DNA of 64,000 nt, from assembly GCF_003018255.1 (NCBI RefSeq), contig NZ_CP027440.1; one strand, 5' to 3'. The notes below the pieces were generated by a model, which worked only from the letters and a program-made list of their open reading frames with translations, made no database searches and was not told the DNA's origin. This document shows positions 1,138 through 64,000 of the stretch, piece after piece (positions within the stretch are counted from its first letter, which is position 1; every line of letters starts with the position of its first letter). Made by a program: the position numbers and the translations under genes. The stretch is from Escherichia coli (lineage in GTDB: Bacteria > Pseudomonadota > Gammaproteobacteria > Enterobacterales > Enterobacteriaceae).

Positions 1138-2037
1138 TTATTTATTACGCTGGATGATGTAGTCCGCTAGCGCTTCCAGTGCCGAGGTATCGAGTGACTG
1201 TTCAGTCAGTTGTTTCAGCGACTGACGGGCATCGTCGATCAGATCCCGGGCTTTCTTCCGGGCTTGCTCAAGACCCAGAAGTGCAGGGTAGGTACTTTTA
1301 CCAAGTTGCTGGTCGGCACCCTGGCGTTTTCCCAACGTTGCAGTATCTCCCACCACATCCAGGATGTCATCCTGAACCTGGAAGGCAAGGCCGATGCTCT
1401 CTGCGTACTTGTCGAGTACTGGCAGAGCACGACGTCCTTTATCTCCGGCGCTTAATGCACCAAGGCGAACGGCGGCGCGAATCAATGCGCCGGTTTTATG
1501 ACGATGAATACGCTCAAGCGCGTCCAGAGGTACGTGTTTGCCTTCAGCGTCTAAATCTAATGCCTGACCACCGCACATTCCGGCAATACCGCTGGCGCTC
1601 GCCAGCTCAGAAATCATCGAAATTCTGTCGCGATCTGACACTTCCGGCATATCGGCATCGCTTAGAATCGAGAACGCCAGCGTTTGTAAAGCGTCACCAG
1701 CGAGAATCGCGTTTGCTTCGCCAAACTTCACATGGCAGGTCGGCAAACCGCGACGCAGATCGTCATCATCCATCGCCGGTAAATCATCATGAATTAATGA
1801 GTAAGCGTGGATACACTCTACGGCGGCAGCGGGTGCGTCCAGTGTGTTTGTGCTAACGCCGAACATATGACCAGTGGCATAAACCAGGAAAGGTCGCAGG
1901 CGCTTACCACCTAATAATGCGCCATACTGCATGGTTTCGACCACGGGAGTGTTCTGAAAGGGCAGTGGGGCGATAAAACGGCTCAGCGCCTGGTTGGCCT
2001 GCTTAACGCAGGCTTCGAGTTGCTGCGGAAAGTCCAT
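1138..2037 (-). CDS. ispA: farnesyl diphosphate synthase
   Basis: Track ORF 1138..2037 (299 aa); two Asp-rich prenyltransferase motifs (LIHDDLPAMDDDDLRRG, FQVQDDILD); 24 nt upstream of dxs on same strand. Confidence 0.95.
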   Translation of the reverse strand: MDFPQQLEACVKQANQALSRFIAPLPFQNTPVVETMQYGALLGGKRLRPFLVYATGHMFGVSTNTLDAPAAAVECIHAYSLIHDDLPAMDDDDLRRGLPTCHVKFGEANAILAGDALQTLAFSILSDADMPEVSDRDRISMISELASASGIAGMCGGQALDLDAEGKHVPLDALERIHRHKTGALIRAAVRLGALSAGDKGRRALPVLDKYAESIGLAFQVQDDILDVVGDTATLGKRQGADQQLGKSTYPALLGLEQARKKARDLIDDARQSLKQLTEQSLDTSALEALADYIIQRNK

Positions 2038-2279
2038 TACTCATTGTCCGGTGTAAAAGGGGTTAGAGAGGCGTCTTCATTGTCAGACAGCAGAATTTGT
2101 ACGCGCTGTTCGGCTTGTTGTAATTTGGCCTGCCCCTGACGTGCCAGCTGCACGCCGCGTTCGAACTCGTTCAGCGCCTCTTCCAGCGGCAGGTCGCCAC
2201 TTTCCAGACGGGTTACAATCTGTTCCAGCTCGCTCAGCGCCTTTTCAAAGCTGGCGGGAGCCTCATTTTTCTTCGGCAT
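2037..2279 (-). CDS. xseB: exodeoxyribonuclease VII small subunit
   Basis: Track ORF 2037..2279 (80 aa); stop overlaps ispA start by 1 nt (translational coupling, xseB-ispA-dxs operon). Confidence 0.93.
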
Positions 2280-2484
2280 AATGAATGTCTGACTCTCAAT
2301 ATTTTTCGCCCCGTCATGGTAACGGACTCAGGGCAAATAGCAAATAACGCGCAATGGTAAGGTGATGTGCGCAGCAAAGCGATGTTAGTGGTATACTTCC
2401 GCGCCTGGATGCAGCCGCAGGTGTGGGCTGCTGTATTTTTCCCTATACAAGTCGCTTAAGGCTTGCCAACGAACCATTGCCGCC

Positions 2485-3933
2485 ATGAAGTTTATCATTA
2501 AATTGTTCCCGGAAATCACCATCAAAAGCCAATCTGTGCGCTTGCGCTTTATAAAAATCCTTACCGGGAACATTCGTAACGTTTTAAAGCACTATGATGA
2601 GACGCTCGCTGTCGTCCGTCACTGGGATAACATCGAAGTTCGCGCAAAAGATGAAAACCAGCGTCTGGCTATTCGCGACGCCCTGACCCGTATTCCGGGT
2701 ATCCACCATATTCTCGAAGTCGAAGACGTGCCGTTTACCGACATGCACGATATTTTCGAGAAAGCGTTGGTTCAATATCGCGATCAGCTGGAAGGCAAAA
2801 CCTTCTGCGTACGCGTGAAGCGCCGCGGCAAACATGATTTTAGCTCGATTGATGTGGAACGTTACGTCGGCGGCGGTTTAAATCAGCATATTGAATCCGC
2901 GCGCGTGAAGCTGACCAATCCGGAAGTGACTGTCCATCTGGAAGTGGAAGACGATCGTCTGCTGCTGATTAAAGGCCGCTACGAAGGTATTGGCGGTTTC
3001 CCGATCGGCACCCAGGAAGATGTGTTGTCGCTCATTTCAGGTGGTTTCGACTCCGGCGTTTCCAGTTATATGTTGATGCGTCGCGGCTGCCGCGTGCATT
3101 ACTGCTTCTTTAACCTCGGCGGCGCGGCGCATGAAATTGGCGTGCGTCAGGTGGCGCATTATCTGTGGAACCGCTTTGGCAGCTCCCACCGCGTACGTTT
3201 TGTCGCTATTAATTTCGAACCGGTCGTCGGGGAAATTCTCGAGAAAATCGACGACGGTCAGATGGGCGTTATCCTCAAACGTATGATGGTGCGTGCCGCG
3301 TCCAAAGTGGCAGAACGTTACGGCGTACAGGCGCTGGTTACCGGTGAAGCGCTCGGCCAGGTGTCCAGCCAGACGCTGACCAACCTACGCCTGATTGATA
3401 ACGTCTCCGATACGCTGATCCTGCGTCCGCTGATCTCTTACGACAAAGAGCACATCATCAACCTGGCTCGCCAGATTGGCACCGAAGACTTTGCCCGCAC
3501 GATGCCGGAATATTGCGGCGTGATTTCCAAAAGCCCGACGGTGAAAGCGGTTAAATCGAAGATTGAAGCGGAAGAAGAGAAGTTCGACTTCAGCATTCTC
3601 GATAAAGTGGTGGAGGAAGCGAATAACGTTGATATCCGCGAAATCGCCCAGCAGACCGAGCAGGAAGTGGTGGAAGTGGAAACCGTCAATGGCTTCGGCC
3701 CGAACGACGTGATCCTCGATATCCGTTCTATCGATGAACAGGAAGATAAGCCACTGAAAGTCGAAGGGATTGATGTGGTTTCTCTGCCGTTCTATAAACT
3801 GAGCACCAAATTTGGCGATCTCGACCAGAGCAAAACCTGGCTGTTGTGGTGTGAGCGCGGGGTGATGAGCCGCCTGCAGGCGCTCTATCTGCGCGAGCAG
3901 GGCTTTAACAATGTGAAGGTGTATCGCCCGTAA
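2485..3933 (+). CDS. thiI: tRNA 4-thiouridine synthase ThiI
   Basis: Track ORF 482 aa; PP-loop SGGFDSGV and C-terminal rhodanese-like region; divergent from xseB. Confidence 0.95.
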
Positions 3934-3947
3934 TTTGTGGTTTTTAC

Positions 3948-3969
3948 GTCGCATCTGGTCAGATGCGAC
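3948..3969. repeat. REP-like palindrome (GTCGCATC-N6-GATGCGAC) between convergent thiI and yajL; possible bidirectional terminator
   Basis: Inverted repeat read directly from sequence immediately 3' of thiI stop. Confidence 0.5.
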
Positions 3970-3986
3970 GCTTACCGCATCCGACA

Positions 3987-6110: not shown

Positions 6111-6136
6111 TCGCGACAACCTGCGCTTTGTTCATG

Positions 6137-6223
6137 TCAGATGCGGCATGAACGCCTGATTTGGCTTACAAAGGTTTGTAACTCAGGAACTTAGTAGGCC
6201 TGATAAGCGTAGCGCAGCAGGCA
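6137..6223. repeat. REP-type palindromic units (includes GTAGGCCTGATAAGCGTAGCGCAGCAGGC)
   Basis: Sequence matches the REP family seen again at 50963-50992; between convergent yajQ and yajR. Confidence 0.6.
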
Positions 6224-6237
6224 ATTTCGCCTCGCTT

Positions 6238-7602
6238 TTATGCCTGGCGAATTGCCTGTTCAACCTCAAAGCGATTCGTCACTTTGCTGTCGATTTTCAC
6301 ATACACTGAATGTTCTTCTTCTGCAATCAACACTTCTTTGACGCCTTCAGTTTCCAGCAAACGTACTTCTAACGCTTCGTTTGCGGCAGTGTCCGCCGGG
6401 ATTTCAATGCGCAAGCTGCTGACATACGGCGGTTCTTTCATGGTACTGGCGACTGCCAGCCACACTGCGGCCAGCATTGCGCCAGCGAGAAATACTCCCT
6501 GACCGTCAAACATGCCGTCAATCCAGCCGCCCAGCGAACCGCCAATCGCCACGCCAAGAAACTGGCTGGTGGAGTAAACACCCATCGCCGTACCTTTGTA
6601 ACCTGCTGGCGATTCTTTACTGATAAGTGAAGGCAGAAGGGCTTCCATCAAATTAAACGCCACAAAGAAAAGCTGCACGCCGACCACCAGTTGCCAGAAC
6701 TGCGTTTGTGCGTTCCACAACACAATTTCCGCAACCACGATCAGCCCGACGCAAAAGACAAAGACTTGCTTCATTTTGCGCTTAACTTCAGCGTAGATAA
6801 TGAAAGGCACGACCGAGCCAAAGGCGATTAACATCGTTGCCAGGTAGACCTTCCAGTGTTCAGCCGCCGGGAACCCCGCATCAGCCATCTGTCCGGGCAG
6901 GGCAACAAAGGTCGACATCAGCAAAATATGCAGACACATAATGCCAAAGTTGAGTTTCAGCAGCCGCGGTTCCGCCAGCACTTTACTGAAACTTCCTTTC
7001 ACCATTCCGGACTCACGATTAAGTACGTGAGTGCTACTGTTGGGCACAACCCAAATGGTCAACGCAATGCCGGTTGCTGCCAGAATAGCGATCATCCAGA
7101 ACAGCGCGTGCAGCCCAAGTTTGTGAGTGATGATCGGGCCAAGCACCATCGCAATGGCAAAGGTAATGCCAAAGCTCACGCCGATAAACGCCATCGCTTT
7201 GGTGCGGTTTTGTTCGCGCGTGAGATCGGAAAGCAGCGCCATAACGGCAGCGGCAATCGCACCGGAGCCTTGTAGCGCCCGGCCCAGAATAATTCCCCAG
7301 ATGGAGTCAGAGAGCGCAGCGATAACGCTACCGGCGGCAAACACTGCCAGCCCACCGACAATTAATGGTTTGCGACCAATGCGGTCGGAAAGCAGGCCAA
7401 ACGGAATCTGAAAAACGGCCTGAGTCAGACCATAAATACCAATGGCAATACCGATTAATGCTTCGCTGGCACCTTGCAGAGCCATGCCGTACGTGGTCAG
7501 AACCGGCAGAACCATGAACATGCCCAGCATGCGCAACGAGAATACGGTCCCTAAACCCCAGGTCGCGCGTCGCTCACCTGGCGTCATTTTATAATCGTTC
7601 AT
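6238..7602 (-). CDS. yajR: major facilitator superfamily transporter YajR
   Basis: Track ORF 6238..7800 trimmed to ATG 7600-7602 (MNDYKMTPGE...), 454 aa, polytopic membrane protein. Confidence 0.9.
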   Translation of the reverse strand: MNDYKMTPGERRATWGLGTVFSLRMLGMFMVLPVLTTYGMALQGASEALIGIAIGIYGLTQAVFQIPFGLLSDRIGRKPLIVGGLAVFAAGSVIAALSDSIWGIILGRALQGSGAIAAAVMALLSDLTREQNRTKAMAFIGVSFGITFAIAMVLGPIITHKLGLHALFWMIAILAATGIALTIWVVPNSSTHVLNRESGMVKGSFSKVLAEPRLLKLNFGIMCLHILLMSTFVALPGQMADAGFPAAEHWKVYLATMLIAFGSVVPFIIYAEVKRKMKQVFVFCVGLIVVAEIVLWNAQTQFWQLVVGVQLFFVAFNLMEALLPSLISKESPAGYKGTAMGVYSTSQFLGVAIGGSLGGWIDGMFDGQGVFLAGAMLAAVWLAVASTMKEPPYVSSLRIEIPADTAANEALEVRLLETEGVKEVLIAEEEHSVYVKIDSKVTNRFEVEQAIRQA

Positions 7603-11598: not shown

Positions 11599-12546
<948 letters not shown>

Positions 12547-19636: not shown

Positions 19637-19668
19637 TTAACCATTCCCATACAATTAGTTAACCAAAA

Positions 19669-19698
19669 AGGGGGGATTTTATCTCCCCTTTAATTTTT
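19669..19698 (+). terminator. probable terminator after clpX (GGGGA/TCCCC stem, U-rich tail)
   Basis: Hairpin and T-rich run read from sequence. Confidence 0.6.
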
Positions 19699-19713
19699 CC
19701 TCTATTCTCGGCG

Positions 19714-19740
19714 TTGAATGTGGGGGAAACATCCCCATAT
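19714..19740 (+). promoter_or_regulatory. sigma-32 heat-shock promoter of lon (TTGAAT-N13-CCCCATAT)
   Basis: Motifs read about 85-110 nt upstream of lon ATG. Confidence 0.7.
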
Positions 19741-19823
19741 ACTGACGTACATGTTAATAGATGGCGTGAAGCACAGTCGTGTCATCTGATTACCTGGCGG
19801 AAATTAAACTAAGAGAGAGCTCT

Positions 19824-25736: not shown

Positions 25737-25748
25737 ACGTTTTGTGGT

Positions 25749-25773
25749 GCCGGATGCTCAAGCCGCATCCGGC
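25749..25773. repeat. REP-like palindrome GCCGGATGC-N7-GCATCCGGC between convergent fadM and queC
   Basis: Perfect 9-bp inverted repeat read from sequence; likely bidirectional terminator. Confidence 0.6.
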
Positions 25774-25787
25774 GACACCCGGAATAA

Positions 25788-37381: not shown

Positions 37382-37495
37382 GGGGGCTCTGTTGGTTCTC
37401 CCGCAACGCTACTCTGTTTACCAGGTCAGGTCCGGAAGGAAGCAGCCAAGGCAGATGACGCGTGTGCCGGGATGTAGCTGGCAGGGCCCCCACCC
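37382..37495 (+). ncRNA. ffs: 4.5S RNA (signal recognition particle RNA), 114 nt
   Basis: Sequence GGGGGCUCUGUUGGUUCUCCCGCAACGC...GGCAGGGCCCCCACCC read directly; matches 4.5S RNA including the conserved GGAA tetraloop region. Confidence 0.95.
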
Positions 37496-47470: not shown

Positions 47471-50400
47471 ATGACTATGTTCCAGTATTACAAACGATCA
47501 CGGCATTTTGTTTTTTCAGCATTTATTGCTTTTGTTTTTGTCTTGTTATGCCAGAACACGGCGTTTGCGCGGGCGTCATCGAATGGTGATCTGCCGACAA
47601 AAGCGGACCTGCAGGCACAACTTGACTCACTGAATAAACAAAAAGATCTTTCTGCTCAGGACAAACTGGTGCAGCAGGATCTGACAGATACATTAGCTAC
47701 CCTCGATAAAATCGATCGCGTAAAAGAAGAGACAGTTCAGCTACGGCAAAAGGTTGCTGAAGCGCCGGAAAAAATGCGCCAGGCGACCGCGGCGTTAACT
47801 GCACTTAGCGATGTCGATAATGACGAAGAAACGCGCAAAATTCTGAGTACGCTTTCGTTGCGCCAGCTGGAAACTCGCGTTGCCCAGGCGCTGGACGATT
47901 TGCAAAACGCACAAAACGATCTGGCGTCTTATAACAGCCAGCTGGTTTCGTTACAGACGCAGCCCGAACGCGTGCAAAATGCGATGTATAACGCTTCGCA
48001 GCAGCTGCAACAAATTCGCAGTCGTCTGGATGGGACTGATGTCGGCGAGACTGCCTTACGTCCCAGCCAGAAAGTGTTAATGCAGGCTCAGCAGGCGTTG
48101 CTGAATGCCGAGATTGACCAGCAGCGTAAAAGCCTGGAAGGGAACACAGTCTTACAGGATACCTTGCAAAAGCAACGGGATTACGTGACGGCGAACAGCG
48201 CCCGTCTGGAGCACCAGTTGCAGCTGTTGCAAGAAGCAGTAAACAGCAAGCGTCTGACTTTAACCGAAAAAACGGCGCAGGAAGCCGTCTCCCCGGATGA
48301 AGCCGCGCGTATTCAGGCTAATCCGCTGGTGAAGCAGGAACTGGAAATTAACCAGCAGTTAAGTCAGCGTCTGATTACCGCGACTGAAAACGGTAATCAG
48401 TTGATGCAGCAAAACATTAAAGTCAAAAACTGGCTGGAGCGGGCGCTGCAATCGGAACGCAATATTAAAGAGCAGATTGCCGTCCTGAAGGGCAGCTTGC
48501 TGTTGTCTCGTATCCTTTACCAGCAACAACAAACGCTGCCCTCGGCGGATGAACTGGAAAACATGACCAACCGCATCGCGGATTTGCGTCTCGAACAGTT
48601 TGAAGTTAACCAGCAGCGTGATGCACTCTTCCAGAGCGATGCGTTCGTCAACAAACTGGAAGAAGGTCACACCAACGAAGTCAACAGCGAAGTTCACGAT
48701 GCATTATTGCAAGTGGTTGATATGCGTCGCGAATTGCTGGATCAGCTTAACAAACAGTTGGGTAACCAATTGATGATGGCCATTAACCTGCAAATCAACC
48801 AGCAGCAGTTAATGAGTGTGTCGAAAAACCTGAAATCCATCCTGACTCAGCAAATCTTTTGGGTGAACAGTAACCGTCCAATGGACTGGGACTGGATCAA
48901 AGCGTTCCCGCAAAGCCTGAAAGATGAATTTAAGTCGATGAAAATCACGGTGAACTGGGAAAAAGCCTGGCCTGCCGTTTTTATCGCTTTCCTCGCCGGT
49001 TTGCCGCTGCTGTTGATTGCCGGGCTGATCCACTGGCGTCTGGGCTGGCTGAAAGCGTATCAACAAAAACTGGCTTCCGCTGTGGGTTCCCTGCGTAACG
49101 ACAGCCAGCTCAACACACCAAAAGCGATCCTTATCGACCTGATCCGTGCGCTGCCGGTGTGCCTGATTATTCTCGCGGTTGGCCTGATTCTGTTGACCAT
49201 GCAGCTCAACATCAGCGAACTGCTATGGTCGTTCAGTAAAAAACTGGCGATTTTCTGGCTGGTGTTTGGCCTGTGCTGGAAGGTACTGGAGAAAAACGGC
49301 GTTGCCGTGCGTCACTTTGGTATGCCGGAACAGCAGACCAGCCACTGGCGTCGGCAAATTGTCCGCATCAGTCTCGCGTTGCTGCCTATCCATTTCTGGT
49401 CTGTGGTGGCAGAACTTTCCCCGCTGCATCTGATGGATGATGTGCTGGGGCAGGCGATGATTTTCTTCAACTTGCTGCTGATTGCCTTCCTGGTGTGGCC
49501 GATGTGCCGCGAAAGCTGGCGTGATAAAGAGTCGCACACCATGCGACTGGTCACCATTACCGTACTGTCGATTATCCCGATTGCGTTGATGGTGCTGACT
49601 GCCACGGGTTATTTCTACACCACGCTGCGCCTCTCCGGGCGTTGGATTGAAACCGTTTATTTGGTGATCATCTGGAACCTGCTGTACCAGACGGTATTGC
49701 GCGGCTTAAGCGTAGCGGCGCGGCGTATCGCCTGGCGTCGTGCGCTGGCGCGTCGGCAGAATCTGGTGAAAGAGGGCGCAGAAGGTGCTGAACCGCCGGA
49801 AGAACCCACCATTGCACTGGAGCAGGTTAACCAGCAGACGCTGCGTATTACCATGTTGCTGATGTTTGCGCTGTTCGGTGTCATGTTCTGGGCAATTTGG
49901 TCCGATTTGATCACCGTGTTCAGCTATCTGGACAGCATCACGCTCTGGCATTACAACGGCACTGAAGCTGGCGCTGCGGTGGTGAAAAACGTCACCATGG
50001 GCAGTCTGTTGTTTGCGATTATCGCCTCAATGGTGGCCTGGGCGTTGATTCGCAACCTGCCTGGTTTACTGGAAGTGCTGGTGCTCTCGCGACTGAATAT
50101 GCGCCAGGGCGCGTCGTATGCCATTACTACCATCCTTAACTACATCATTATTGCCGTTGGTGCGATGACGGTGTTCGGATCGCTGGGCGTCTCGTGGGAT
50201 AAACTCCAGTGGCTGGCGGCAGCATTATCCGTAGGTCTTGGTTTTGGTTTACAAGAGATCTTCGGTAACTTCGTTTCCGGTTTGATCATTCTGTTCGAAC
50301 GTCCGGTGCGCATAGGCGACACGGTAACCATTGGTAGCTTCTCGGGTACGGTCAGCAAGATCCGTATTCGTGCGACAACGATTACCGATTTCGATCGCAA

Positions 50401-50833
50401 AGAAGTGATTATCCCGAACAAAGCGTTTGTTACCGAGCGTCTGATCAACTGGTCGTTGACTGACACGACTACGCGTCTGGTGATCCGTCTCGGCGTAGCT
50501 TATGGCTCCGATCTGGAAAAAGTGCGTAAAGTGTTGCTGAAGGCGGCGACTGAGCACCCAAGGGTGATGCACGAACCAATGCCGGAAGTCTTCTTTACGG
50601 CATTTGGTGCCAGCACGTTGGATCATGAGCTGCGTCTGTATGTGCGTGAACTGCGTGACCGTAGCCGTACTGTCGATGAGCTGAACCGTACTATCGATCA
50701 GCTGTGCCGTGAAAACGACATCAACATTGCCTTTAACCAGCTTGAAGTGCATCTGCACAACGAGAAGGGCGATGAGGTGACGGAAGTCAAACGCGACTAC
50801 AAAGGCGACGATCCGACGCCAGCGGTAGGGTAA
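47471..50833 (+). CDS. mscK: potassium-dependent mechanosensitive channel MscK
   Basis: Track ORF 1120 aa; signal peptide, long coiled-coil periplasmic domain, C-terminal MscS-like channel domain. Confidence 0.95.
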   Translation: MTMFQYYKRSRHFVFSAFIAFVFVLLCQNTAFARASSNGDLPTKADLQAQLDSLNKQKDLSAQDKLVQQDLTDTLATLDKIDRVKEETVQLRQKVAEAPEKMRQATAALTALSDVDNDEETRKILSTLSLRQLETRVAQALDDLQNAQNDLASYNSQLVSLQTQPERVQNAMYNASQQLQQIRSRLDGTDVGETALRPSQKVLMQAQQALLNAEIDQQRKSLEGNTVLQDTLQKQRDYVTANSARLEHQLQLLQEAVNSKRLTLTEKTAQEAVSPDEAARIQANPLVKQELEINQQLSQRLITATENGNQLMQQNIKVKNWLERALQSERNIKEQIAVLKGSLLLSRILYQQQQTLPSADELENMTNRIADLRLEQFEVNQQRDALFQSDAFVNKLEEGHTNEVNSEVHDALLQVVDMRRELLDQLNKQLGNQLMMAINLQINQQQLMSVSKNLKSILTQQIFWVNSNRPMDWDWIKAFPQSLKDEFKSMKITVNWEKAWPAVFIAFLAGLPLLLIAGLIHWRLGWLKAYQQKLASAVGSLRNDSQLNTPKAILIDLIRALPVCLIILAVGLILLTMQLNISELLWSFSKKLAIFWLVFGLCWKVLEKNGVAVRHFGMPEQQTSHWRRQIVRISLALLPIHFWSVVAELSPLHLMDDVLGQAMIFFNLLLIAFLVWPMCRESWRDKESHTMRLVTITVLSIIPIALMVLTATGYFYTTLRLSGRWIETVYLVIIWNLLYQTVLRGLSVAARRIAWRRALARRQNLVKEGAEGAEPPEEPTIALEQVNQQTLRITMLLMFALFGVMFWAIWSDLITVFSYLDSITLWHYNGTEAGAAVVKNVTMGSLLFAIIASMVAWALIRNLPGLLEVLVLSRLNMRQGASYAITTILNYIIIAVGAMTVFGSLGVSWDKLQWLAAALSVGLGFGLQEIFGNFVSGLIILFERPVRIGDTVTIGSFSGTVSKIRIRATTITDFDRKEVIIPNKAFVTERLINWSLTDTTTRLVIRLGVAYGSDLEKVRKVLLKAATEHPRVMHEPMPEVFFTAFGASTLDHELRLYVRELRDRSRTVDELNRTIDQLCRENDINIAFNQLEVHLHNEKGDEVTEVKRDYKGDDPTPAVG

Positions 50834-50892
50834 TAACCAAAGGGGGCGACATTTAGTTGCCCCGAGATTACTAACAAAGTGCGCGTTGTTCA

Positions 50893-50992
50893 TGCCGGAT
50901 GCGGCGTGACCGCCTTATCCGGCCTACGAAACCGCAAGAATTCAATATATTGCAGGAGCGGTGTAGGCCTGATAAGCGTAGCGCATCAGGCA
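50893..50992. repeat. BIME: two REP units in opposite orientation (TGCCGGATGCGGCGTGACCGCCTTATCCGGCCTAC and GTAGGCCTGATAAGCGTAGCGCATCAGGC)
   Basis: Canonical REP sequences read directly between convergent mscK and ybaM. Confidence 0.85.
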
Positions 50993-51044
50993 GTTTTGCG
51001 TTTGCCCACAATCTTAGGGGACATTTAGCGACCCCATTTATTTC

Positions 51045-51206
51045 TCACTTTTCCGCCTCATCATCGCGCGTTAATTTCTTTTCATAATCGCGTTTTACAA
51101 TATCCAGCGCGCGCAGTACGGTGCGGGCTGGGATCTGATTTTCTTCCAGCAGCACAATCAAATCGACGGCCAGTTTGACATCGTCAGGGGCATTTTCCAG
51201 TGACAT
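51045..51206 (-). CDS. ybaM: small protein YbaM (DUF2496), 53 aa
   Basis: Not in the 60-aa-minimum ORF track; hand translation of minus strand gives [53 protein letters not shown]; 13 nt downstream of priC. Confidence 0.8.
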
Positions 51207-53026: not shown

Positions 53027-54958
53027 ATGAGTTATCAGGTCTTAGCCCGAAAATGGCGCCCACAAACCTTTGCTGACGTCGTCGGCCAGGAACATGTGCT
53101 GACCGCACTGGCGAACGGCTTGTCGTTAGGGCGTATTCATCATGCTTATCTTTTTTCCGGCACCCGTGGCGTCGGAAAAACCTCTATCGCCCGACTGCTG
53201 GCGAAGGGGCTAAACTGCGAAACCGGCATTACCGCGACGCCGTGCGGCGTGTGCGATAACTGTCGTGAAATCGAGCAGGGGCGCTTTGTCGATCTGATTG
53301 AAATCGACGCCGCCTCGCGCACTAAAGTTGAAGACACTCGCGACCTGCTGGATAACGTCCAGTACGCTCCGGCGCGTGGTCGTTTCAAAGTTTATCTCAT
53401 CGACGAAGTGCATATGCTGTCGCGTCACAGCTTTAACGCACTGTTAAAAACCCTTGAAGAGCCGCCAGAGCACGTTAAGTTTTTGCTGGCGACGACCGAT
53501 CCGCAGAAATTGCCGGTGACGATTTTGTCACGCTGTCTGCAATTTCATCTCAAGGCGCTGGATGTCGAGCAAATTCGCCATCAGCTTGAGCACATCCTCA
53601 ACGAAGAACATATCGCTCACGAGCCGCGGGCGCTGCAATTGTTGGCACGCGCCGCTGAAGGCAGCCTGCGAGATGCCTTAAGTCTGACCGACCAGGCGAT
53701 TGCCAGCGGTGACGGCCAGGTTTCAACCCAGGCGGTCAGTGCGATGCTGGGTACGCTTGACGACGATCAGGCGTTATCGCTGGTTGAAGCGATGGTCGAG
53801 GCCAACGGCGAGCGCGTAATGGCGCTGATTAATGAAGCTGCTGCCCGTGGTATCGAGTGGGAAGCGTTGCTGGTGGAAATGCTCGGTCTGTTGCATCGTA
53901 TTGCGATGGTACAACTTTCGCCTGCTGCTCTTGGCAACGACATGGCCGCCATTGAGCTGCGGATGCGTGAACTGGCGCGCACCATACCGCCGACGGATAT
54001 TCAGCTTTACTATCAGACGCTGTTGATTGGTCGCAAAGAATTACCGTATGCGCCAGACCGCCGTATGGGTGTTGAGATGACGCTGCTGCGCGCGCTGGCG
54101 TTCCATCCGCGTATGCCGCTGCCTGAGCCAGAAGTGCCACGCCAGTCCTTTGCGCCCGTCGCGCCAACGGCAGTAATGACGCCAACACAGGTGCCGCCGC
54201 AACCGCAATCAGCGCCGCAGCAGGCACCGACTGTACCGCTCCCGGAAACCACCAGCCAGGTGCTGGCGGCGCGCCAGCAGTTGCAGCGCGTGCAGGGAGC
54301 AACCAAAGCAAAAAAGAGTGAACCGGCAGCCGCTACCCGCGCGCGGCCGGTGAATAACGCTGCGCTGGAAAGACTGGCTTCGGTCACCGATCGTGTTCAG
54401 GCGCGCCCGGTGCCATCGGCGCTGGAAAAAGCGCCAGCTAAAAAAGAAGCGTATCGCTGGAAGGCGACCACTCCAGTGATGCAGCAAAAAGAAGTGGTCG
54501 CCACGCCGAAGGCGCTGAAAAAAGCGCTGGAACATGAAAAAACGCCGGAACTGGCGGCGAAGCTGGCGGCAGAAGCCATTGAGCGCGACCCGTGGGCGGC
54601 TCAGGTGAGTCAACTTTCGCTACCAAAACTGGTCGAACAGGTGGCGTTAAATGCCTGGAAAGAGGAGAACGGCAACACGGTGTGTCTGCATTTGCGCTCC
54701 TCTCAGCGTCATCTGAATAACAGTGGCGCACAGCAAAAACTGGCTGAAGCGTTGAGCACGTTAAAAGGTTCAACGGTTGAACTGACTATCGTTGAAGATG
54801 ATAATCCCGCGGTGCGTACGCCGCTGGAATGGCGTCAGGCGATATACGAAGAAAAACTTGCGCAGGCGCGCGAGTCCATTATTGCGGATAATAATATTCA
54901 GACCCTGCGTCGGTTCTTCGATGCGGAGCTGGATGAAGAAAGTATCCGCCCCATTTGA
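53027..54958 (+). CDS. dnaX: DNA polymerase III subunit tau (full-length product)
   Basis: Track ORF 643 aa; Walker A GTRGVGKTS; Zn module CGVCDNC. Confidence 0.97.
   Translation: MSYQVLARKWRPQTFADVVGQEHVLTALANGLSLGRIHHAYLFSGTRGVGKTSIARLLAKGLNCETGITATPCGVCDNCREIEQGRFVDLIEIDAASRTKVEDTRDLLDNVQYAPARGRFKVYLIDEVHMLSRHSFNALLKTLEEPPEHVKFLLATTDPQKLPVTILSRCLQFHLKALDVEQIRHQLEHILNEEHIAHEPRALQLLARAAEGSLRDALSLTDQAIASGDGQVSTQAVSAMLGTLDDDQALSLVEAMVEANGERVMALINEAAARGIEWEALLVEMLGLLHRIAMVQLSPAALGNDMAAIELRMRELARTIPPTDIQLYYQTLLIGRKELPYAPDRRMGVEMTLLRALAFHPRMPLPEPEVPRQSFAPVAPTAVMTPTQVPPQPQSAPQQAPTVPLPETTSQVLAARQQLQRVQGATKAKKSEPAAATRARPVNNAALERLASVTDRVQARPVPSALEKAPAKKEAYRWKATTPVMQQKEVVATPKALKKALEHEKTPELAAKLAAEAIERDPWAAQVSQLSLPKLVEQVALNAWKEENGNTVCLHLRSSQRHLNNSGAQQKLAEALSTLKGSTVELTIVEDDNPAVRTPLEWRQAIYEEKLAQARESIIADNNIQTLRRFFDAELDEESIRPI
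54294..54350 (+). other. dnaX: dnaX programmed -1 ribosomal frameshift cassette producing gamma: SD-like AGGGAG (54294-54299), slippery A_AAA_AAG (54310-54316), -1 frame stop TGA (54319-54321), downstream stem-loop (about 54323-54350)
   Basis: All elements read in the dnaX frame (AAA=Lys429, AAG=Lys430); a -1 shift yields ...K-K-E-stop, a 431-aa gamma. Confidence 0.9.
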
Positions 54959-57933: not shown

Positions 57934-57972
57934 ATGCCGGATGACCTTCGTGTCATCCGGCATTTTTCTTTT
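57934..57972 (+). terminator. Rho-independent terminator after htpG
   Basis: TGCCGGATGA...TCATCCGGCA 10-bp stem followed by T-rich tail. Confidence 0.85.
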
Positions 57973-58754: not shown

Positions 58755-58885
58755 TCAAGCCGCAGCAGATCTGCTTTCGGGCAGGTCTGCTCATCCTCCT
58801 CAGGCAATACCTCTCACAGCAATTAGTTCTTCTTCTTCACTTTTCCGCTACAATTATCAACAAGTTGAATCGATAAGAGGCGGTA

Positions 58886-62260: not shown

Positions 62261-62292
62261 GTTATCGACCAGACCGGACGACGATGGCATCC

Positions 62293-62329
62293 GTAGGCCG
62301 GATAAGATGCGTCAGCATCGCATCCGGCA
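62293..62329. repeat. REP element (GTAGGCCGGATAAGATGCGTCAGCATCGCATCCGGCA)
   Basis: REP-family palindromic sequence read between convergent gsk and ybaL. Confidence 0.75.
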
Positions 62330-62343
62330 ATGGAATCAATGTT

Positions 62344-64000
62344 TTACCCCGTCACCACCTCACCCGCCGGTGGCGTTTCCAGCAGTTCCAGCATAGTACG
62401 AGCAATTTCACGCTCACCCATCACTACCTGATTCGCACCACGTTCGGTGATATACGCCACTTCATCGTCATAATGGGCGCGGGCAATAATCTCAATATCC
62501 GGATTTTTCGCGCGGGCAGATGCCACAATCTCGCCCGCTTCATAACCGTTGGGAATCGTCAGGATCAGCCATTTTGCACATTCCAGATGCGCCAGTTGCA
62601 TAATTTCTTCGTTCGCCGCATTGCCCAATACTGCGCGGACCCCGCGCTCTCGCAGTTCATCAACACGGGTTCGTGACGTCTCAATCACCACCAGCGGAAT
62701 ATCAGAGGCGAGCAATTTCTCCCCCAGCAGGCTGCCTACACGACCGTAACCTACCAGTAGCGCATGGTTGCAAATATCCACTGGGATCTGCTTCTCTTCT
62801 TCGATAGCCTCTTCCAGCGTCTGCTCTTCCAGCGTTTCGGTCTTCGCCAGATATTTCTCCAGCAGCGCAAACAGGACCGGGTTGAGCATAATCGACAAAA
62901 TCGCCCCTGCCAGTACCAGGTTCTGCCCGGCTTGCGGCAATAGATCCAGCGCCATGCCCAGTCCCGCCAGGATAAACGCGAACTCACCAATTTGCGCCAG
63001 GCTGGCGGCGATAGTTAATGCCGTACGTTGGGAGTGACCAAACAGTCGCACCAGGAAAAACGCGGCTAACGACTTACCAAACAGAATAATCGCCAGCGTC
63101 GCCAGCACTGCCAGCGGTTGCTGAATCAGAATTAACGGATCAAACAACATCCCGACGGAGACAAAAAACAGCACCGCAAACGCGTCGCGCAATGGCAGCG
63201 TATCGTGGGCGGCACGGTGACTCAGTTCAGACTCGTTCAGTACCATCCCGGCAAAGAACGCACCGAGTGCAAAGGAGACATCAAACAGCTCCACCGCACC
63301 AAAGGCAATCCCTAACGCCAGTGCCAGCACCGACAGGGTAAACAGCTCACGGGAACCGGTTGCTGCGCTACGTGCCATAATCCACGGCACCAGACGGCGA
63401 CCTACCAGCATCATAATGGCGATAAATGCGATCACCTTGCCGATGGTGATCCCCATATCGACAGCAAGAGTGGCAAAGCCCACATCGCCTTGTTCCATCA
63501 TTCCTGCCACTGCGGGCAGCAACACCAGCGTCAGAACCATGACCAGGTCTTCCACAATCAACCAACCGATGGCGATTTGCCCACGCTGACTGTCAATTAA
63601 TTGCCGTTCTTCAAGTGCGCGCAGTAACACCACGGTACTGGCGGTGGAAAGACATAAACCGAACACGATACCGGTCATTAACGACCAACCCAGCACGGCG
63701 GAGAGCGCCATACCCAGCAGCGTAGCCACGGCTATCTGGGCGATCGCGCCGGGAATGGCGATGGCCTTTACCGCCATCAAATCCTTGAGCGAAAAGTGCA
63801 AACCGACGCCAAACATCAACAGAATGACGCCCAGTTCAGCCAGTTCCGGCGCAAGCTTGGTATCGGCAACAAAGCCCGGAGTGAATGGTCCTGCCAGCAC
63901 ACCCGCTAACAGATATCCCACCAGAGGAGAAATACGTAGTTTATTGGCCAGCATGCCGAGGATAAAGGCGAGCACAAGGCCGCCAACAATGGTGGTGATA
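62344..64000 (-). CDS. ybaL: CPA2-family cation:proton antiporter YbaL, 3' portion (N-terminus lies beyond window end)
   Basis: Track ORF 62344..63975; minus-strand frame stays open to nt 64000 (reads ...ITTIVGG upstream of the track Met); C-terminal TrkA-N/Rossmann region present. Confidence 0.9.
   Translation of the reverse strand, partial: ITTIVGGLVLAFILGMLANKLRISPLVGYLLAGVLAGPFTPGFVADTKLAPELAELGVILLMFGVGLHFSLKDLMAVKAIAIPGAIAQIAVATLLGMALSAVLGWSLMTGIVFGLCLSTASTVVLLRALEERQLIDSQRGQIAIGWLIVEDLVMVLTLVLLPAVAGMMEQGDVGFATLAVDMGITIGKVIAFIAIMMLVGRRLVPWIMARSAATGSRELFTLSVLALALGIAFGAVELFDVSFALGAFFAGMVLNESELSHRAAHDTLPLRDAFAVLFFVSVGMLFDPLILIQQPLAVLATLAIILFGKSLAAFFLVRLFGHSQRTALTIAASLAQIGEFAFILAGLGMALDLLPQAGQNLVLAGAILSIMLNPVLFALLEKYLAKTETLEEQTLEEAIEEEKQIPVDICNHALLVGYGRVGSLLGEKLLASDIPLVVIETSRTRVDELRERGVRAVLGNAANEEIMQLAHLECAKWLILTIPNGYEAGEIVASARAKNPDIEIIARAHYDDEVAYITERGANQVVMGEREIARTMLELLETPPAGEVVTG

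Follow-up and report, generated by a model that had tools for sequence, protein, structure and literature searches.

The junction between the converging mscK and rsmS genes of an Escherichia coli chromosome very probably owes its present structure to a BIME-1 element, a member of an already known family, which now lies inside a formerly single bidirectional terminator and whose REP units stand in 3′ untranslated regions (3′ UTRs). The window, that is, the whole 64,000-nucleotide stretch of chromosome that was analysed, is collinear with 439-503 kb of K-12. The 100 bases flagged in it at the outset are the Y REP, L linker and Z1 REP core of a single-copy BIME-1 (RIP/RIB). Nothing sets the element itself apart from ordinary BIME-1 copies. 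What the original prediction had missed is the BIME-1 type with its IHF-type linker, the absence of the element from about 28% of E. coli genomes, and its nesting between two copies of a hairpin.

Five REP Units at Three Convergent Junctions

REP units were searched for with a profile of our own, built from 43 K-12 copies rather than from curated REP/RIP coordinates. The 43 copies in 267 kb of K-12 are all intergenic; across them 96.8% of the REP helix is paired, and two of its pairs show compensatory changes. With the covariance model, five units of the window scored 34-55 bits (E = 1e-5 to 4e-10), the next best match in the 64 kb reaching 11.8 bits (E = 1.3), and nhmmer returned the same five. 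A leave-out model made only of the 37 REPs from other loci retained the three canonical units (E = 1e-9, 2e-8 and 2e-5) and ranked the yajQ pair next (E = 0.005 and 0.01). Two of the five units lie at mscK-rsmS, two at yajQ-yajR and one at gsk-ybaL. Their predicted folds range from -11.5 to -21.5 kcal/mol, each with an internal mismatch, and the GTAG/CTAC foot is found in four of them, being decayed to TTAC in the first unit after yajQ. By profile match, by a palindrome with a tetranucleotide foot and by the presence of dispersed extragenic copies, the five units belong to the E. coli REP family. A 701-nt mscK-rsmS query including the REPs found a median of 19 places per genome with megablast, an indirect control for the single-copy hairpins described below, whose counts were obtained in another search mode. 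A scan with an 11-mer allowing 2 mismatches was uninformative (37 matches against 23 expected).

The match after yajQ had been put down as a canonical palindrome. It does belong to the family, but it consists of two units, a decayed Y-type REP and a Z1-type REP (Table 1). The former (leave-out nhmmer E = 0.005) aligns with other BIME-1 copies and is preceded by an A-motif remnant, CTGCGCTTTGTTCAT; the linker between the two (6170-6193) is only 24 nt long and lacks the L/IHF core. The yajR stop codon (6238-6240, minus strand) is followed, 15 nt downstream, by the end of the Z1-type unit, and beyond this unit, at 445327, lies the K-12 Term-seq 3′ end on the yajQ side. To judge by these sequence features, the pair is a decayed BIME-1 relic.

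The REP expected after gsk was found there as a single unit. Its hairpin (-21.5 kcal/mol) lies 32 nt past the gsk stop codon and starts 15 nt past that of ybaL (62344-62346, minus strand). K-12 and most strains have a different, two-REP allele at gsk-ybaL, which in K-12 is a Y plus long-Z pair. The mscK-rsmS, gsk-ybaL and adk-hemH spacers are all strain-polymorphic for small repeats.

Table 1. Positions of repeat units, motifs and hairpins in the window (CM, covariance model).
Feature	Position	Strand	Remarks
Palindrome, thiI-yajL: CGTCGCATCTG-GT-CAGATGCGACG	3947-3970		perfect; not REP; one arm mimics REP left arm
Y-type REP after yajQ	6136-6169	+	decayed; TTAC tail, not CTAC; CM 34.4 bits, E = 1e-5
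Z1-type REP after yajQ	6194-6222	-	CM 36.2 bits, E = 5e-6
Hairpin, fadM-queC: GCCGGATGC-TCAAGCC-GCATCCGGC	25748-25774		perfect; not REP; no GTAG/CTAC tail, no internal mismatch
Hairpin H1: GGGGCGAC-ATTTA-GTTGCCCC	50843-50863		left copy of mscK/rsmS terminator hairpin; A-run before
A motif: GAGATTACTAACAAAGTGCGCGTTGTTCAT	50864-50893	+	element begins at 50865; consensus at other BIME-1 loci CAGATTGTTGACAAAGTGCGCTTTGTTCAT
Y-type REP: GCCGGATGCGGCGTGACCGCCTTATCCGGCCTAC	50894-50927	+	CTAC tail 50924-50927; CM 54.6 bits, E = 4e-10
L linker, conserved core AATTCAATATATTGCAG	50928-50962	+	core 50939-50955
REP assigned to Z1: GCCTGATGCGCTACGCTTATCAGGCCTAC	50963-50991	-	short type, 29 nt; CM 43.1 bits, E = 1e-7
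B motif: AGTTTTGCGTTTGCCCACAATCTTA	50992-51016	+	U-rich directly past Z1; element ends at 51014
Hairpin H2: GGGGACATTTAGCGACCCC	51017-51035		right, partly decayed copy of terminator hairpin
htpG intrinsic terminator: GCCGGATG/CATCCGGC stem, then TTTTTCTTTT	57934-57963	+	-21.3 kcal/mol
REP between gsk and ybaL: GCCGGATGCGATGCTGACGCATCTTATCCGGCCTAC	62293-62328	-	single unit; CM 49.8 bits, E = 5e-9

A Single-Copy BIME-1 between mscK and rsmS

The two units after mscK are opposite in orientation, as had been predicted, with 35 nt between them, and the full element measures 150 nt (50865-51014). The Y REP (nhmmer E = 1e-10; leave-out model E = 1e-9) folds into an RNA hairpin of -21.2 kcal/mol (z = -4.9). 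The Z1 REP, with its GTAG at 50963-50966 on the plus strand, gives a hairpin of -13.2 kcal/mol, and the region around it shares 85% identity with the copy at 6184-6230 over 47 nt. The K-12 coordinates of the two-unit repeat are 489959-490056. In E. coli strain S3 and locus L012, IS621 sits right after the GTAG of this Z1 REP.

L-type linkers are of the kind that IHF binds in DNA. Here the linker carries a putative site resembling the IHF consensus, ATTCAATATATTG (50940-50952), with one mismatch to WATCAANNNNTTR; an IHF site is often contained in L linkers (PMC3333891). With up to 1 mismatch allowed, the L core was found at 4 places in the 267 kb of K-12, always between a Y and a Z1 REP, and the Y-L-Z1 architecture is found at four K-12 loci and at 65 metagenome loci. 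Among the sampled K-12 copies, Z units of the short, 29-nt type are paired with Y over the long L linker, and those of 36-37 nt build tandem arrays, sucB-sucC being an example. By the published definition, BIME-1 combines Y and Z1 with an L that bears an IHF site, and BIME-2 combines Y with Z2 (PMC3333891); sucB-sucC is recorded as carrying BIME-2 (PMC3333891; PMC6379681). The names Y, Z1 and Z2 are assigned here from context, not by comparison with published consensus sequences. Other names for BIME-1 are RIP (repetitive IHF-binding palindromic) and RIB (Gilson, Bachellier and Hofnung; Boccard and Prentki 1993; Oppenheim 1993).

Outside the REP units lie the two stretches that we take to be the A and B motifs of Gilson 1991. 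The B motif is retained at other BIME-1 loci (consensus ARTTTTGCGTTTGTCATCAGTCTCA), and the outer A motif and the end of the B motif form an imperfect terminal inverted repeat of 15-16 nt, AGATTGNTGACAAAG ... CTTTGNCANCAATCT, with 12/15 positions matching in the consensus.

Terminator Hairpins on Either Side of the Element

The element is bordered by two hairpins, H1 on the mscK side and H2 on the rsmS side. H1 folds as an 8-bp stem, which on the minus strand is followed by CUUUGGUUAUU. In K-12 the minus-strand stem is followed by CUUUCGUUUUU, and Term-seq maps a strong minus-strand 3′ end at 489902/3, 6 nt beyond the stem (PMC7815308 supplementary files 1 and 2). With hairpin, U-run and mapped 3′ end, H1 is an intrinsic (Rho-independent) terminator on the minus strand, and because this 3′ end maps beyond the BIME, the element lies inside the rsmS 3′ UTR. 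Past H2 come first ATTTATTTC and then the stop codon of rsmS (51045-51047, minus strand). H2 is weak in the window strain, with 4 G-C pairs, and better kept in other Escherichia species. The alignment of H1 with H2 as a direct repeat scores 12, against a maximum of 10 among 182 mismatched flank pairs, and four other Escherichia species share the repeat with the window. The mscK-rsmS junction of Kluyvera, Klebsiella and Raoultella has a single hairpin, which resembles H1. A consensus terminator scan of 50700-51200 made no relevant call, and the REPs themselves were not called; the published Term-seq data told more. We also considered that H1 and H2, together with the inner inverted repeat, might form a locus-specific palindrome; this was rejected, because the inner repeat consists of parts of the A and B motifs common to other BIME-1 loci.

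The element is carried at this junction by 3,880 of 5,425 E. coli genomes. Genomes without it have a plain bidirectional terminator instead; in ST131 and O157:H7, for example, the mscK-rsmS intergenic region is 38 nt long and contains AAAGGGCG...CGCCCTTTATTTTTT. Since about 28% of the genomes do without it, the element is dispensable at mscK-rsmS. In the BIME-less allele both the loop of the hairpin and the final ~40 nt of rsmS have diverged. As an empty site this allele is thus not clean, and the polarity of the change at mscK-rsmS rests on the outgroups and on analogy with other loci.

We propose that the ancestral junction had one bidirectional intrinsic terminator between mscK and rsmS, which would later have been split by BIME-1, H1 retaining the upstream A-run and H2 the downstream T-run. 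With a hairpin on both sides, each converging transcript has to pass its nearer hairpin, which lacks the tract, and then the entire BIME before it meets a terminating signal. The rsmS transcript does so and ends at H1. By the same read-through, the transcript of mscK would run on towards a Rho termination region farther downstream, which in K-12 is found at 490200 (plus strand, score 3.2), about 300 nt downstream (PMC7815308 supplementary files); the published K-12 data report no plus-strand Term-seq 3′ end near the focal BIME.

REP Units, Convergent Junctions and Transcript 3′ Ends

All five junctions named in the original prediction are convergent, and the link that it drew between REPs and such junctions is upheld in K-12: over 267 kb, REPs are found at 12 of 40 convergent, 7 of 168 co-directional and 1 of 40 divergent junctions (Fisher p = 3e-6), which corresponds to an occupancy of 30% for convergent and about 4% for other junctions. 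The preference of REPs and BIMEs for 3′ ends and convergent junctions has been known since the 1980s and 1990s. REP hairpins within 3′ UTRs can slow 3′-to-5′ decay or attenuate transcription.

This distribution could mean that REP hairpins are selected as RNA 3′-end structures, which would halt or attenuate the transcription of the converging genes or obstruct 3′ exonucleases, a reading to which we give somewhat less than an even chance. The enrichment at convergent junctions is strong, and the association has been published before (PMC1525189). At the yajD-tsx BIME-1 the tsx transcript has its Term-seq 3′ end in the B motif, which is U-rich and directly follows Z1 (K-12 430963), another 3′ end lies 8-9 nt past a REP at K-12 508673, and the Rho termination region at K-12 501531 is 4 nt past the second gsk REP. 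Annotated REPs hold 24% of the 3′ ends that depend on Rho and 13% of the intrinsic ones (PMC6061677). The yajR and ybaL REPs, 15 nt past the stop codon, fall in a distance class reported to lower translation (PMC12306157, citing Liang 2015). Between mscK and rsmS, however, a strong 3′ end has been mapped only at H1, which is no REP and lies past the BIME; the REPs there are therefore passengers of 3′ UTRs, not terminators. Moreover, the element is replaced by a plain terminator in the BIME-less genomes, REP copies decay in place, as after yajQ, and REP alleles at gsk differ between strains. Enrichment at convergent junctions would be equally expected if the element merely targeted terminator hairpins, and the two views are compatible, not exclusive.

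The terminating or stabilising role attributed to the REPs, which is that of the textbooks and for which a comparison with transcript 3′ ends had been suggested, thus receives some support at yajD-tsx, at 508673 and at gsk, but not at mscK-rsmS, where the transcript ends past the BIME. Returning to the split terminator, we infer that REPs mark convergent junctions largely because BIME-1 sits at terminator hairpins, where converging genes end.

Palindromes outside the REP Family

The palindromes after thiI and fadM, predicted to be variant REPs, did not cluster with the family, an outcome that the prediction itself had named as refuting it. For the thiI hairpin the covariance model gave no hit at E<=10, and the fadM hairpin scored 9.5 bits (E = 4). 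With nhmmer, half of the REP model was matched in both (E = 0.2-0.7 for the whole window; E = 0.24-0.66 for thiI). Across 5,424 E. coli genomes the thiI hairpin is found in one place per genome, and that of fadM is essentially single-copy (about 5,424 genomes). Both were rejected as REPs for want of a profile match, of the internal mismatch and of multiple copies, and the fadM hairpin also for want of the foot.

It is unlikely that the two are old, diverged REPs, in which case five junctions, not three, would carry the family. They agree with the REP left arm over 9-14 nt (GATGCGACGC; GCCGGATGC), and they are the best sub-threshold nhmmer matches in intergenic DNA, with E values that would be roughly 100-fold lower for the ~0.6 kb of convergent spacers alone. 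The thiI hairpin has an ACTAC tail at the expected distance, and TTTGTGGT, upstream of both, resembles the BIME-1 A motif TTTGTTCAT. Against this, their scores are within the noise of the covariance model, the nhmmer alignments stop at half of the model, the right arm complements the left perfectly and lacks the TTAT mismatch typical of REPs, the fadM hairpin has no GTAG/CTAC tail, and both are single-copy and nearly invariant over the 5,424 genomes. The same GCCGGATG/CATCCGGC stem is also used by ordinary intrinsic terminators such as that of htpG, which scores only 9.3 bits (E = 4.5) with the covariance model. Perfect hairpins with this stem (fadM, htpG) make up a small second class at gene 3′ ends, and in K-12 such hairpins coincide with Term-seq 3′ ends at crl, ushA and cysS; the stem is thus not confined to the REP family. 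Neither the thiI nor the fadM hairpin should be annotated as a REP.

A search for BoxC and ERIC cores found none, and a repeat search of the window gave no convincing family besides REP. The view that REPs are its only repeat family is therefore essentially correct, the small GCCGGATG/CATCCGGC class being an addition to it.

Duplicated Terminator Hairpins at Other BIME-1 Loci

Further BIME-1 loci were collected by an exact-match scan for the consensus L motif, a sample biased towards young copies. Of the 14 distinct loci, 5 have flank repeats scoring at least 11, a score that none of the 182 mismatched pairs reached (permutation p = 2e-4). Direct copies of the terminator hairpin of the locus thus border the element at about a third of the loci in this sample, and at 11 of the 14 a strong hairpin abuts one end of the element. 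The repeated unit is locus-specific and comes within 0-1 nt of the element ends at independent loci; its length varies among loci, from about 18 to 36 nt. The orientation of the element is consistent, with the Y side towards the A-run and the Z1 side towards the T-run.

Two loci give clean filled/empty pairs. At metE-ysgA one hairpin in the empty allele corresponds to hairpin-BIME-hairpin in the filled one; at fbaA-mscS the duplication is 36 nt long, with microhomology at the junction, and the B end is truncated. At mngB-cydA no BIME-less allele was found among the E. coli genomes carrying the locus, and no filled/empty comparison could be made. The BIME-less alleles at mscK-rsmS and katE-chbG were set aside as proof of target duplication, because they are replaced sequence and not clean empties.

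It is most improbable that the flanking copies are pre-existing tandem terminators or products of later duplication or recombination, with the BIME-less alleles arising by deletion: direct repeats of 19-36 nt would indeed promote deletion between the copies, so that "empty" alleles could be derived, two of these alleles are replaced sequence, and the variable duplication with the microhomology and truncated B end at fbaA-mscS is unlike the work of a fixed-stagger transposase, but a locus-specific unit that abuts the element ends at independent loci, the exactly one hairpin found in related genera and likewise in all E. coli at metE-ysgA, and an A-run on the left copy with a T-run on the right, as expected of one split terminator, all speak for insertion.

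As to how a single terminator comes to be split, we tentatively suggest that BIME-1 elements may be MITE-like units of about 150 bp that home to the base of a terminator hairpin and duplicate the whole hairpin on insertion, which we consider possible rather than probable. The length of the duplication is apparently set by structure or microhomology, suggesting template switching or structure-guided cutting, not the fixed stagger of a transposase. Such homing, if true, would account both for the presence of BIME-1 at convergent junctions and for its embedding in both 3′ UTRs, of which that of rsmS is an observed case. The hairpin-duplication signature may be undescribed. Flanking duplication of terminator hairpins is unmentioned in the BIME-1 literature examined, and the reviews examined deny MITE signatures to REPs and BIMEs; one of 2011 describes REP sequences as lacking them (PMC3184786).

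As first flagged, the mscK-rsmS repeat carries little weight, being an ordinary copy of a known element. A hairpin duplicated around BIME-1, together with clean filled/empty pairs, is by comparison a concrete and testable signature of an insertion event. It bears on how REP and BIME elements spread, offers a simple reason for their distribution in genomes, and merits examination on a genome-wide scale.

Relation to Known Systems

The focal element shares with BIME-1 (RIP/RIB) the inverted Y and Z1 units, the long L linker with an IHF-type site, the single copy and the A and B motifs. BIME-2, made of tandem Y/Z2 arrays, is built from REP units of the same family; it differs from the focal element, which has a short Z, a long L linker and one Y/Z pair, with no tandem repetition. 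BIME-2 arrays are sites for DNA gyrase.

IS621, a REP-specific member of the IS110 family, targets the focal Z1 REP elsewhere and is an occupant of the repeat, not part of the window. Its insertion at the 3′ side of REPs has been reported (PMC3184786, PMC1525189), and its position in S3 and L012 agrees with this.

The REPINs mobilised by RAYT (TnpA_REP) have in common with the focal element an inverted REP doublet, the presumed mobile unit, and the GTAG/CTAC foot of the hairpin. This tetranucleotide is the motif recognised and cleaved by RAYT (Nunvar 2010; Bertels & Rainey 2011; Ton-Hoang 2012). No RAYT gene is present among the genes of the window, and the K-12 sequence that was analysed does not extend to the RAYT locus. 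The flanking duplications of BIME-1, 18-36 nt long, are unlike the products of IS200/IS605-type enzymes, which are not known to make target duplications.

MITEs such as Correia, ERIC/IRU and RUP resemble BIME-1 in being about 150 bp long and non-coding, in their imperfect terminal inverted repeats and flanking direct repeats, and in presence/absence polymorphism. The target duplications of MITEs are short and of fixed length (2-10 bp), whereas the unit duplicated around BIME-1 is a whole hairpin and varies in length; a transposase cognate to BIME-1 was not found. Lastly, bacterial class C group II introns are an example of mobile elements that target terminators, inserting beside the stem-loop of an intrinsic terminator, a safe extragenic site. 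Unlike BIME-1, they are autonomous retroelements, and they insert downstream of the terminator hairpin without duplicating it.

REP sequences of the window

The window is collinear with K-12 MG1655 439,065-503,100 at ~98% identity, apart from the adk-hemH and gsk-ybaL spacers, which are replaced. Genes are named after their K-12 counterparts. The adk-hemH spacer (58756-58808, 53 nt) is unrelated to its K-12 counterpart (~157 nt; positions 25821-25977 of L002, a K-12 stretch), which carries a BoxC-like repeat and a terminator (Term-seq 3' end 497939). The window's Rfam matches, to sraA, ffs and the dnaX element, are all expected for its part of the E. coli chromosome. The REP/BIME stretch considered here lies in the 211-nt spacer between mscK and rsmS.

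Forty-three REP copies were collected from 267 kb of K-12 sequence (about one per 6 kb) by iterating nhmmer to convergence, and aligned to give a covariance model. In this alignment the REP helix is 96.8% paired over the copies, and two of its pairs show compensatory changes. Used without filters, the model identified five REPs in the window at 34-55 bits (E=1e-5 to 4e-10), the best remaining match reaching 11.8 bits (E=1.3); an nhmmer search gave the same picture. Since this model included the K-12 orthologues of four window hits, it was rebuilt from the 37 copies that come from other loci. With the rebuilt model, the three canonical REPs were recovered at E=1e-9, 2e-8 and 2e-5, and the two yajQ REPs ranked next (E=0.005 and 0.01). 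These scores place two REPs after mscK, two after yajQ and one after gsk. The original prediction was right at these three junctions, including the inverted arrangement of the mscK pair, except that it assigned a single unit to yajQ, where there are two, the first decayed. It was wrong at two others, thiI and fadM.

The hairpins following thiI and fadM, taken for variant REPs, do not belong to the family by covariance model, nhmmer, copy number or fold. The fadM hairpin scored 9.5 bits (E=4) against the covariance model, and the thiI hairpin gave no match at E<=10 in the window search; in nhmmer both aligned with the left half of the REP model only (E=0.2-0.7). Both are single-copy across ~5,424 E. 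coli genomes and fold as perfect hairpins without the REP mismatch, that of fadM also lacking the GTAG/CTAC foot. They fall in a more loosely defined group of perfect GCCGGATG/CATCCGGC hairpins, whose stem is the REP outer stem and which recur at gene 3' ends without matching the REP profile. K-12 members include fadM, htpG, ushA and fetB (seven pattern matches versus 0.6 in shuffled sequences), and the K-12 Term-seq tables map RNA 3' ends on some of them (crl, ushA, cysS). Under a very broad published definition, by which every extragenic palindrome of 10 nt or longer counts as a "REP", both hairpins would qualify (PMC12306157); this definition differs from the REP repeat family.

All five junctions named in the original prediction are convergent, and the bias is real: REP clusters were present at 12 of 40 convergent junctions of the K-12 sample, compared with 7 of 168 co-directional and 1 of 40 divergent ones (odds ratio 10.7, p=3e-6). 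Such a bias has already been reported (PMC1525189).

Features of the mscK-rsmS junction and related elements. Coordinates are those of the window unless a comparison sequence (L number) is named.
Feature	Location	Strand	Remarks
mscK	47471-50833	+	name from K-12
3' end at H1	~50837-50838 (K-12 489902/3)	-	Term-seq
H1 hairpin	50843-50863		GGGGCGACATTTAGTTGCCCC
BIME-1, whole	50865-51014
Y REP	50894-50927	+	GCCGGATGCGGCGTGACCGCCTTATCCGGCCTAC
Z1 REP	50963-50991	-	reverse complement, GCCTGATGCGCTACGCTTATCAGGCCTAC
H2 hairpin	51017-51035		GGGGACATTTAGCGACCCC
rsmS/ybaM	51045-51206	-	name from K-12
IS621 in Z1 REP	L005 (E. coli strain S3) 1817-3175; L012 1960-1991
BIME-1 loci with flanking hairpin copies	window; L125, L137, L095, L100, L113, L008:20615-20830		copies of ~18-36 nt
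GCCGGATG/CATCCGGC perfect hairpins	25748-25774, 57934-57963, 3947-3970; K-12 L006:1577-1594, 12370-12393
sraA sRNA	19657-19752	-	Rfam match
4.5S/SRP RNA (ffs)	37390-37486	+	Rfam match
dnaX frameshift element	54291-54355	+	Rfam match

The mscK-rsmS element is a BIME-1

REPs of the K-12 sample fall into three types, Y, long Z and short Z (34, 36-37 and 29 nt, respectively). Long Z and Y alternate in tandem arrays, such as that of sucB-sucC, named BIME-2 in the literature (PMC6379681); short Z partners Y over a long linker. BIME-1 is defined as Y plus Z1 plus a conserved L, which frequently harbours an IHF site (PMC3333891). All four instances of the linker core, AATTCAATATATTGCAG, in the 267 kb fall between Y and Z1; the core contains ATTCAATATATTG, the IHF consensus with one mismatch. 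Alignment of BIME-1 copies showed that their outer motifs, CAGATTGTTGACAAAGTGCGCTTTGTTCAT beside Y (A) and ARTTTTGCGTTTGTCATCAGTCTCA beside Z1 (B), are conserved and that the ends of these motifs make an imperfect inverted repeat. On folding, every REP hairpin of the spacer forms, as does H1, and long-range Y:Z1 pairing is possible. The focal element is a known BIME-1 and, as such, an ordinary finding. The yajQ-yajR element is of the same kind, decayed to a degenerate Y and a 24-nt linker without the L core.

Variation among strains and species

BIME-1 is present at mscK-rsmS in 3,880 of 5,425 E. coli genomes, and also in E. albertii, E. whittamii and two cryptic-clade genomes. About 1,500 E. 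coli genomes, including ST131 and O157:H7, have in its place a 38-nt spacer containing a single bidirectional terminator (AATAAAGGGCGACAGTGATGCCGCCCTTTATTTTTT), with a diverged rsmS 3' end. There RsmS ends in ...SDETSQSE (54 aa; positions 485-560 of the ST131 and O157:H7 sequences, L003 and L004), versus ...RDDEAEK (53 aa) in the window allele (compared stretch 50834-51070). Thus, the two alleles are set apart by a replaced patch that extends ~40 nt into the gene; both occur among phylogroup B2 relatives. In strain S3 and in locus L012, IS621 (IS110 family) lies inside the focal Z1 REP directly after GTAG, and AG is seen at either junction; REPs are a known target of this element (PMC1525189, PMC3184786). 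In L013, an E. coli strain E69 record (1804-2060), BoxC-type repeats (GGGGAGAGGGCTAGGGTGAGGGG) replace the BIME-1 core, the outer A and B ends and both hairpin copies being kept. The junction holds one G+C-rich hairpin in Klebsiella, Raoultella and Kluyvera, BoxC-like repeats in Enterobacter and the genus's own REPs in Citrobacter. Elsewhere, the yajQ-yajR element is almost fixed among E. coli, and the single REP of the window's gsk-ybaL spacer (62268-62342) is a minority allele, K-12 (L002:29437-29560) and most strains having a Y and long Z pair with GTAG ends outward.

Terminator hairpins are often duplicated at the ends of BIME-1

H1 and H2 are direct copies of one hairpin on either side of the focal BIME-1. 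H1 retains the upstream A-run and H2 the downstream ATTTATTT, the pattern that would be expected if one bidirectional terminator had been split with its stem-loop duplicated. To assess how general the duplication is, the L core was searched for in metagenome contigs; it gave 121 matches, 65 of them BIME-1, with 14 distinct loci having both end motifs. Direct-orientation alignment of the 35 nt beyond each end scored 16, 15, 14, 12 and 11 at five of the 14, a score of 11 or more being reached by none of 182 mismatched left/right flank pairs (permutation p=2e-4). What is repeated is the hairpin particular to each locus, adjoining the element ends, and at 11 of 14 loci one end or both are touched by a hairpin at least as strong as -8 kcal/mol. 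On reading the sequences, a T-run was seen on the Z1 side at six of the seven loci in the table, L095 having none.

Two clean comparisons of junctions with and without BIME-1 were found. At metE-ysgA, all E. coli have a single hairpin (ACCGGGTGGTATTACCACCCGGT) and a relative has hairpin-BIME-hairpin, a 171-nt insert. Between strains, the fbaA-mscS junction varies by 167 nt; here the duplication is 36 nt long, and the B end is truncated and shows microhomology. The BIME-less alleles of katE-chbG and mscK-rsmS carry replaced sequence and are uninformative either way.

Transcript ends and relation to known elements

Published K-12 Term-seq and bicyclomycin data (PMC7815308) place a strong minus-strand 3' end 6 nt past the reverse complement of H1 (GGGGCAACTAAATGTTGCCCC CUUUCG), listed for two of the three growth conditions and missing from the first tab. 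This implies that the rsmS-side transcript reads through H2 and all of BIME-1 before it ends at H1, the element lying within its ~210-nt 3' UTR. The signal ranks among the region's strongest minus-strand 3' ends (~336,000 in one condition) and hints at a condition-dependent, abundant RNA containing BIME-1. On the plus strand, the same data map no 3' end near the BIME; they report, antisense to rsmS, a region of Rho termination at 490200 (score 3.2). Elsewhere in K-12, the tsx 3' end falls within the U-rich B motif right after Z1 of the yajD-tsx BIME-1, a Rho termination region lies 4 nt past the second gsk REP, and the yajQ-side end (445327) is at another hairpin past the BIME relic. These observations fit the published view that REPs are often protective stem-loops of Rho-terminated transcripts and only sometimes terminators (PMC6061677).

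The part of PMC12306157 citing Liang 2015 reports that a REP closer than 16 nt to the stop codon reduces translation. REPs past yajR (6222/6238) and ybaL (62328/62344) both start exactly 15 nt after the stop, within this class at its upper limit; the spacings of 60 nt at mscK and 53 nt at rsmS fall outside it.

The best-supported reading of the focal BIME-1 is a non-essential repeat in a former bidirectional terminator, within the 3' UTRs of converging genes. By analogy with its family, it probably binds IHF and stabilises RNA. BIME-1 "excisions" were reportedly described by Bachellier in 1997. Of these results, only the duplication of the terminator hairpin at the ends of BIME-1 may be new; a review presents REP sequences as being without transposon-like signatures (PMC3184786).
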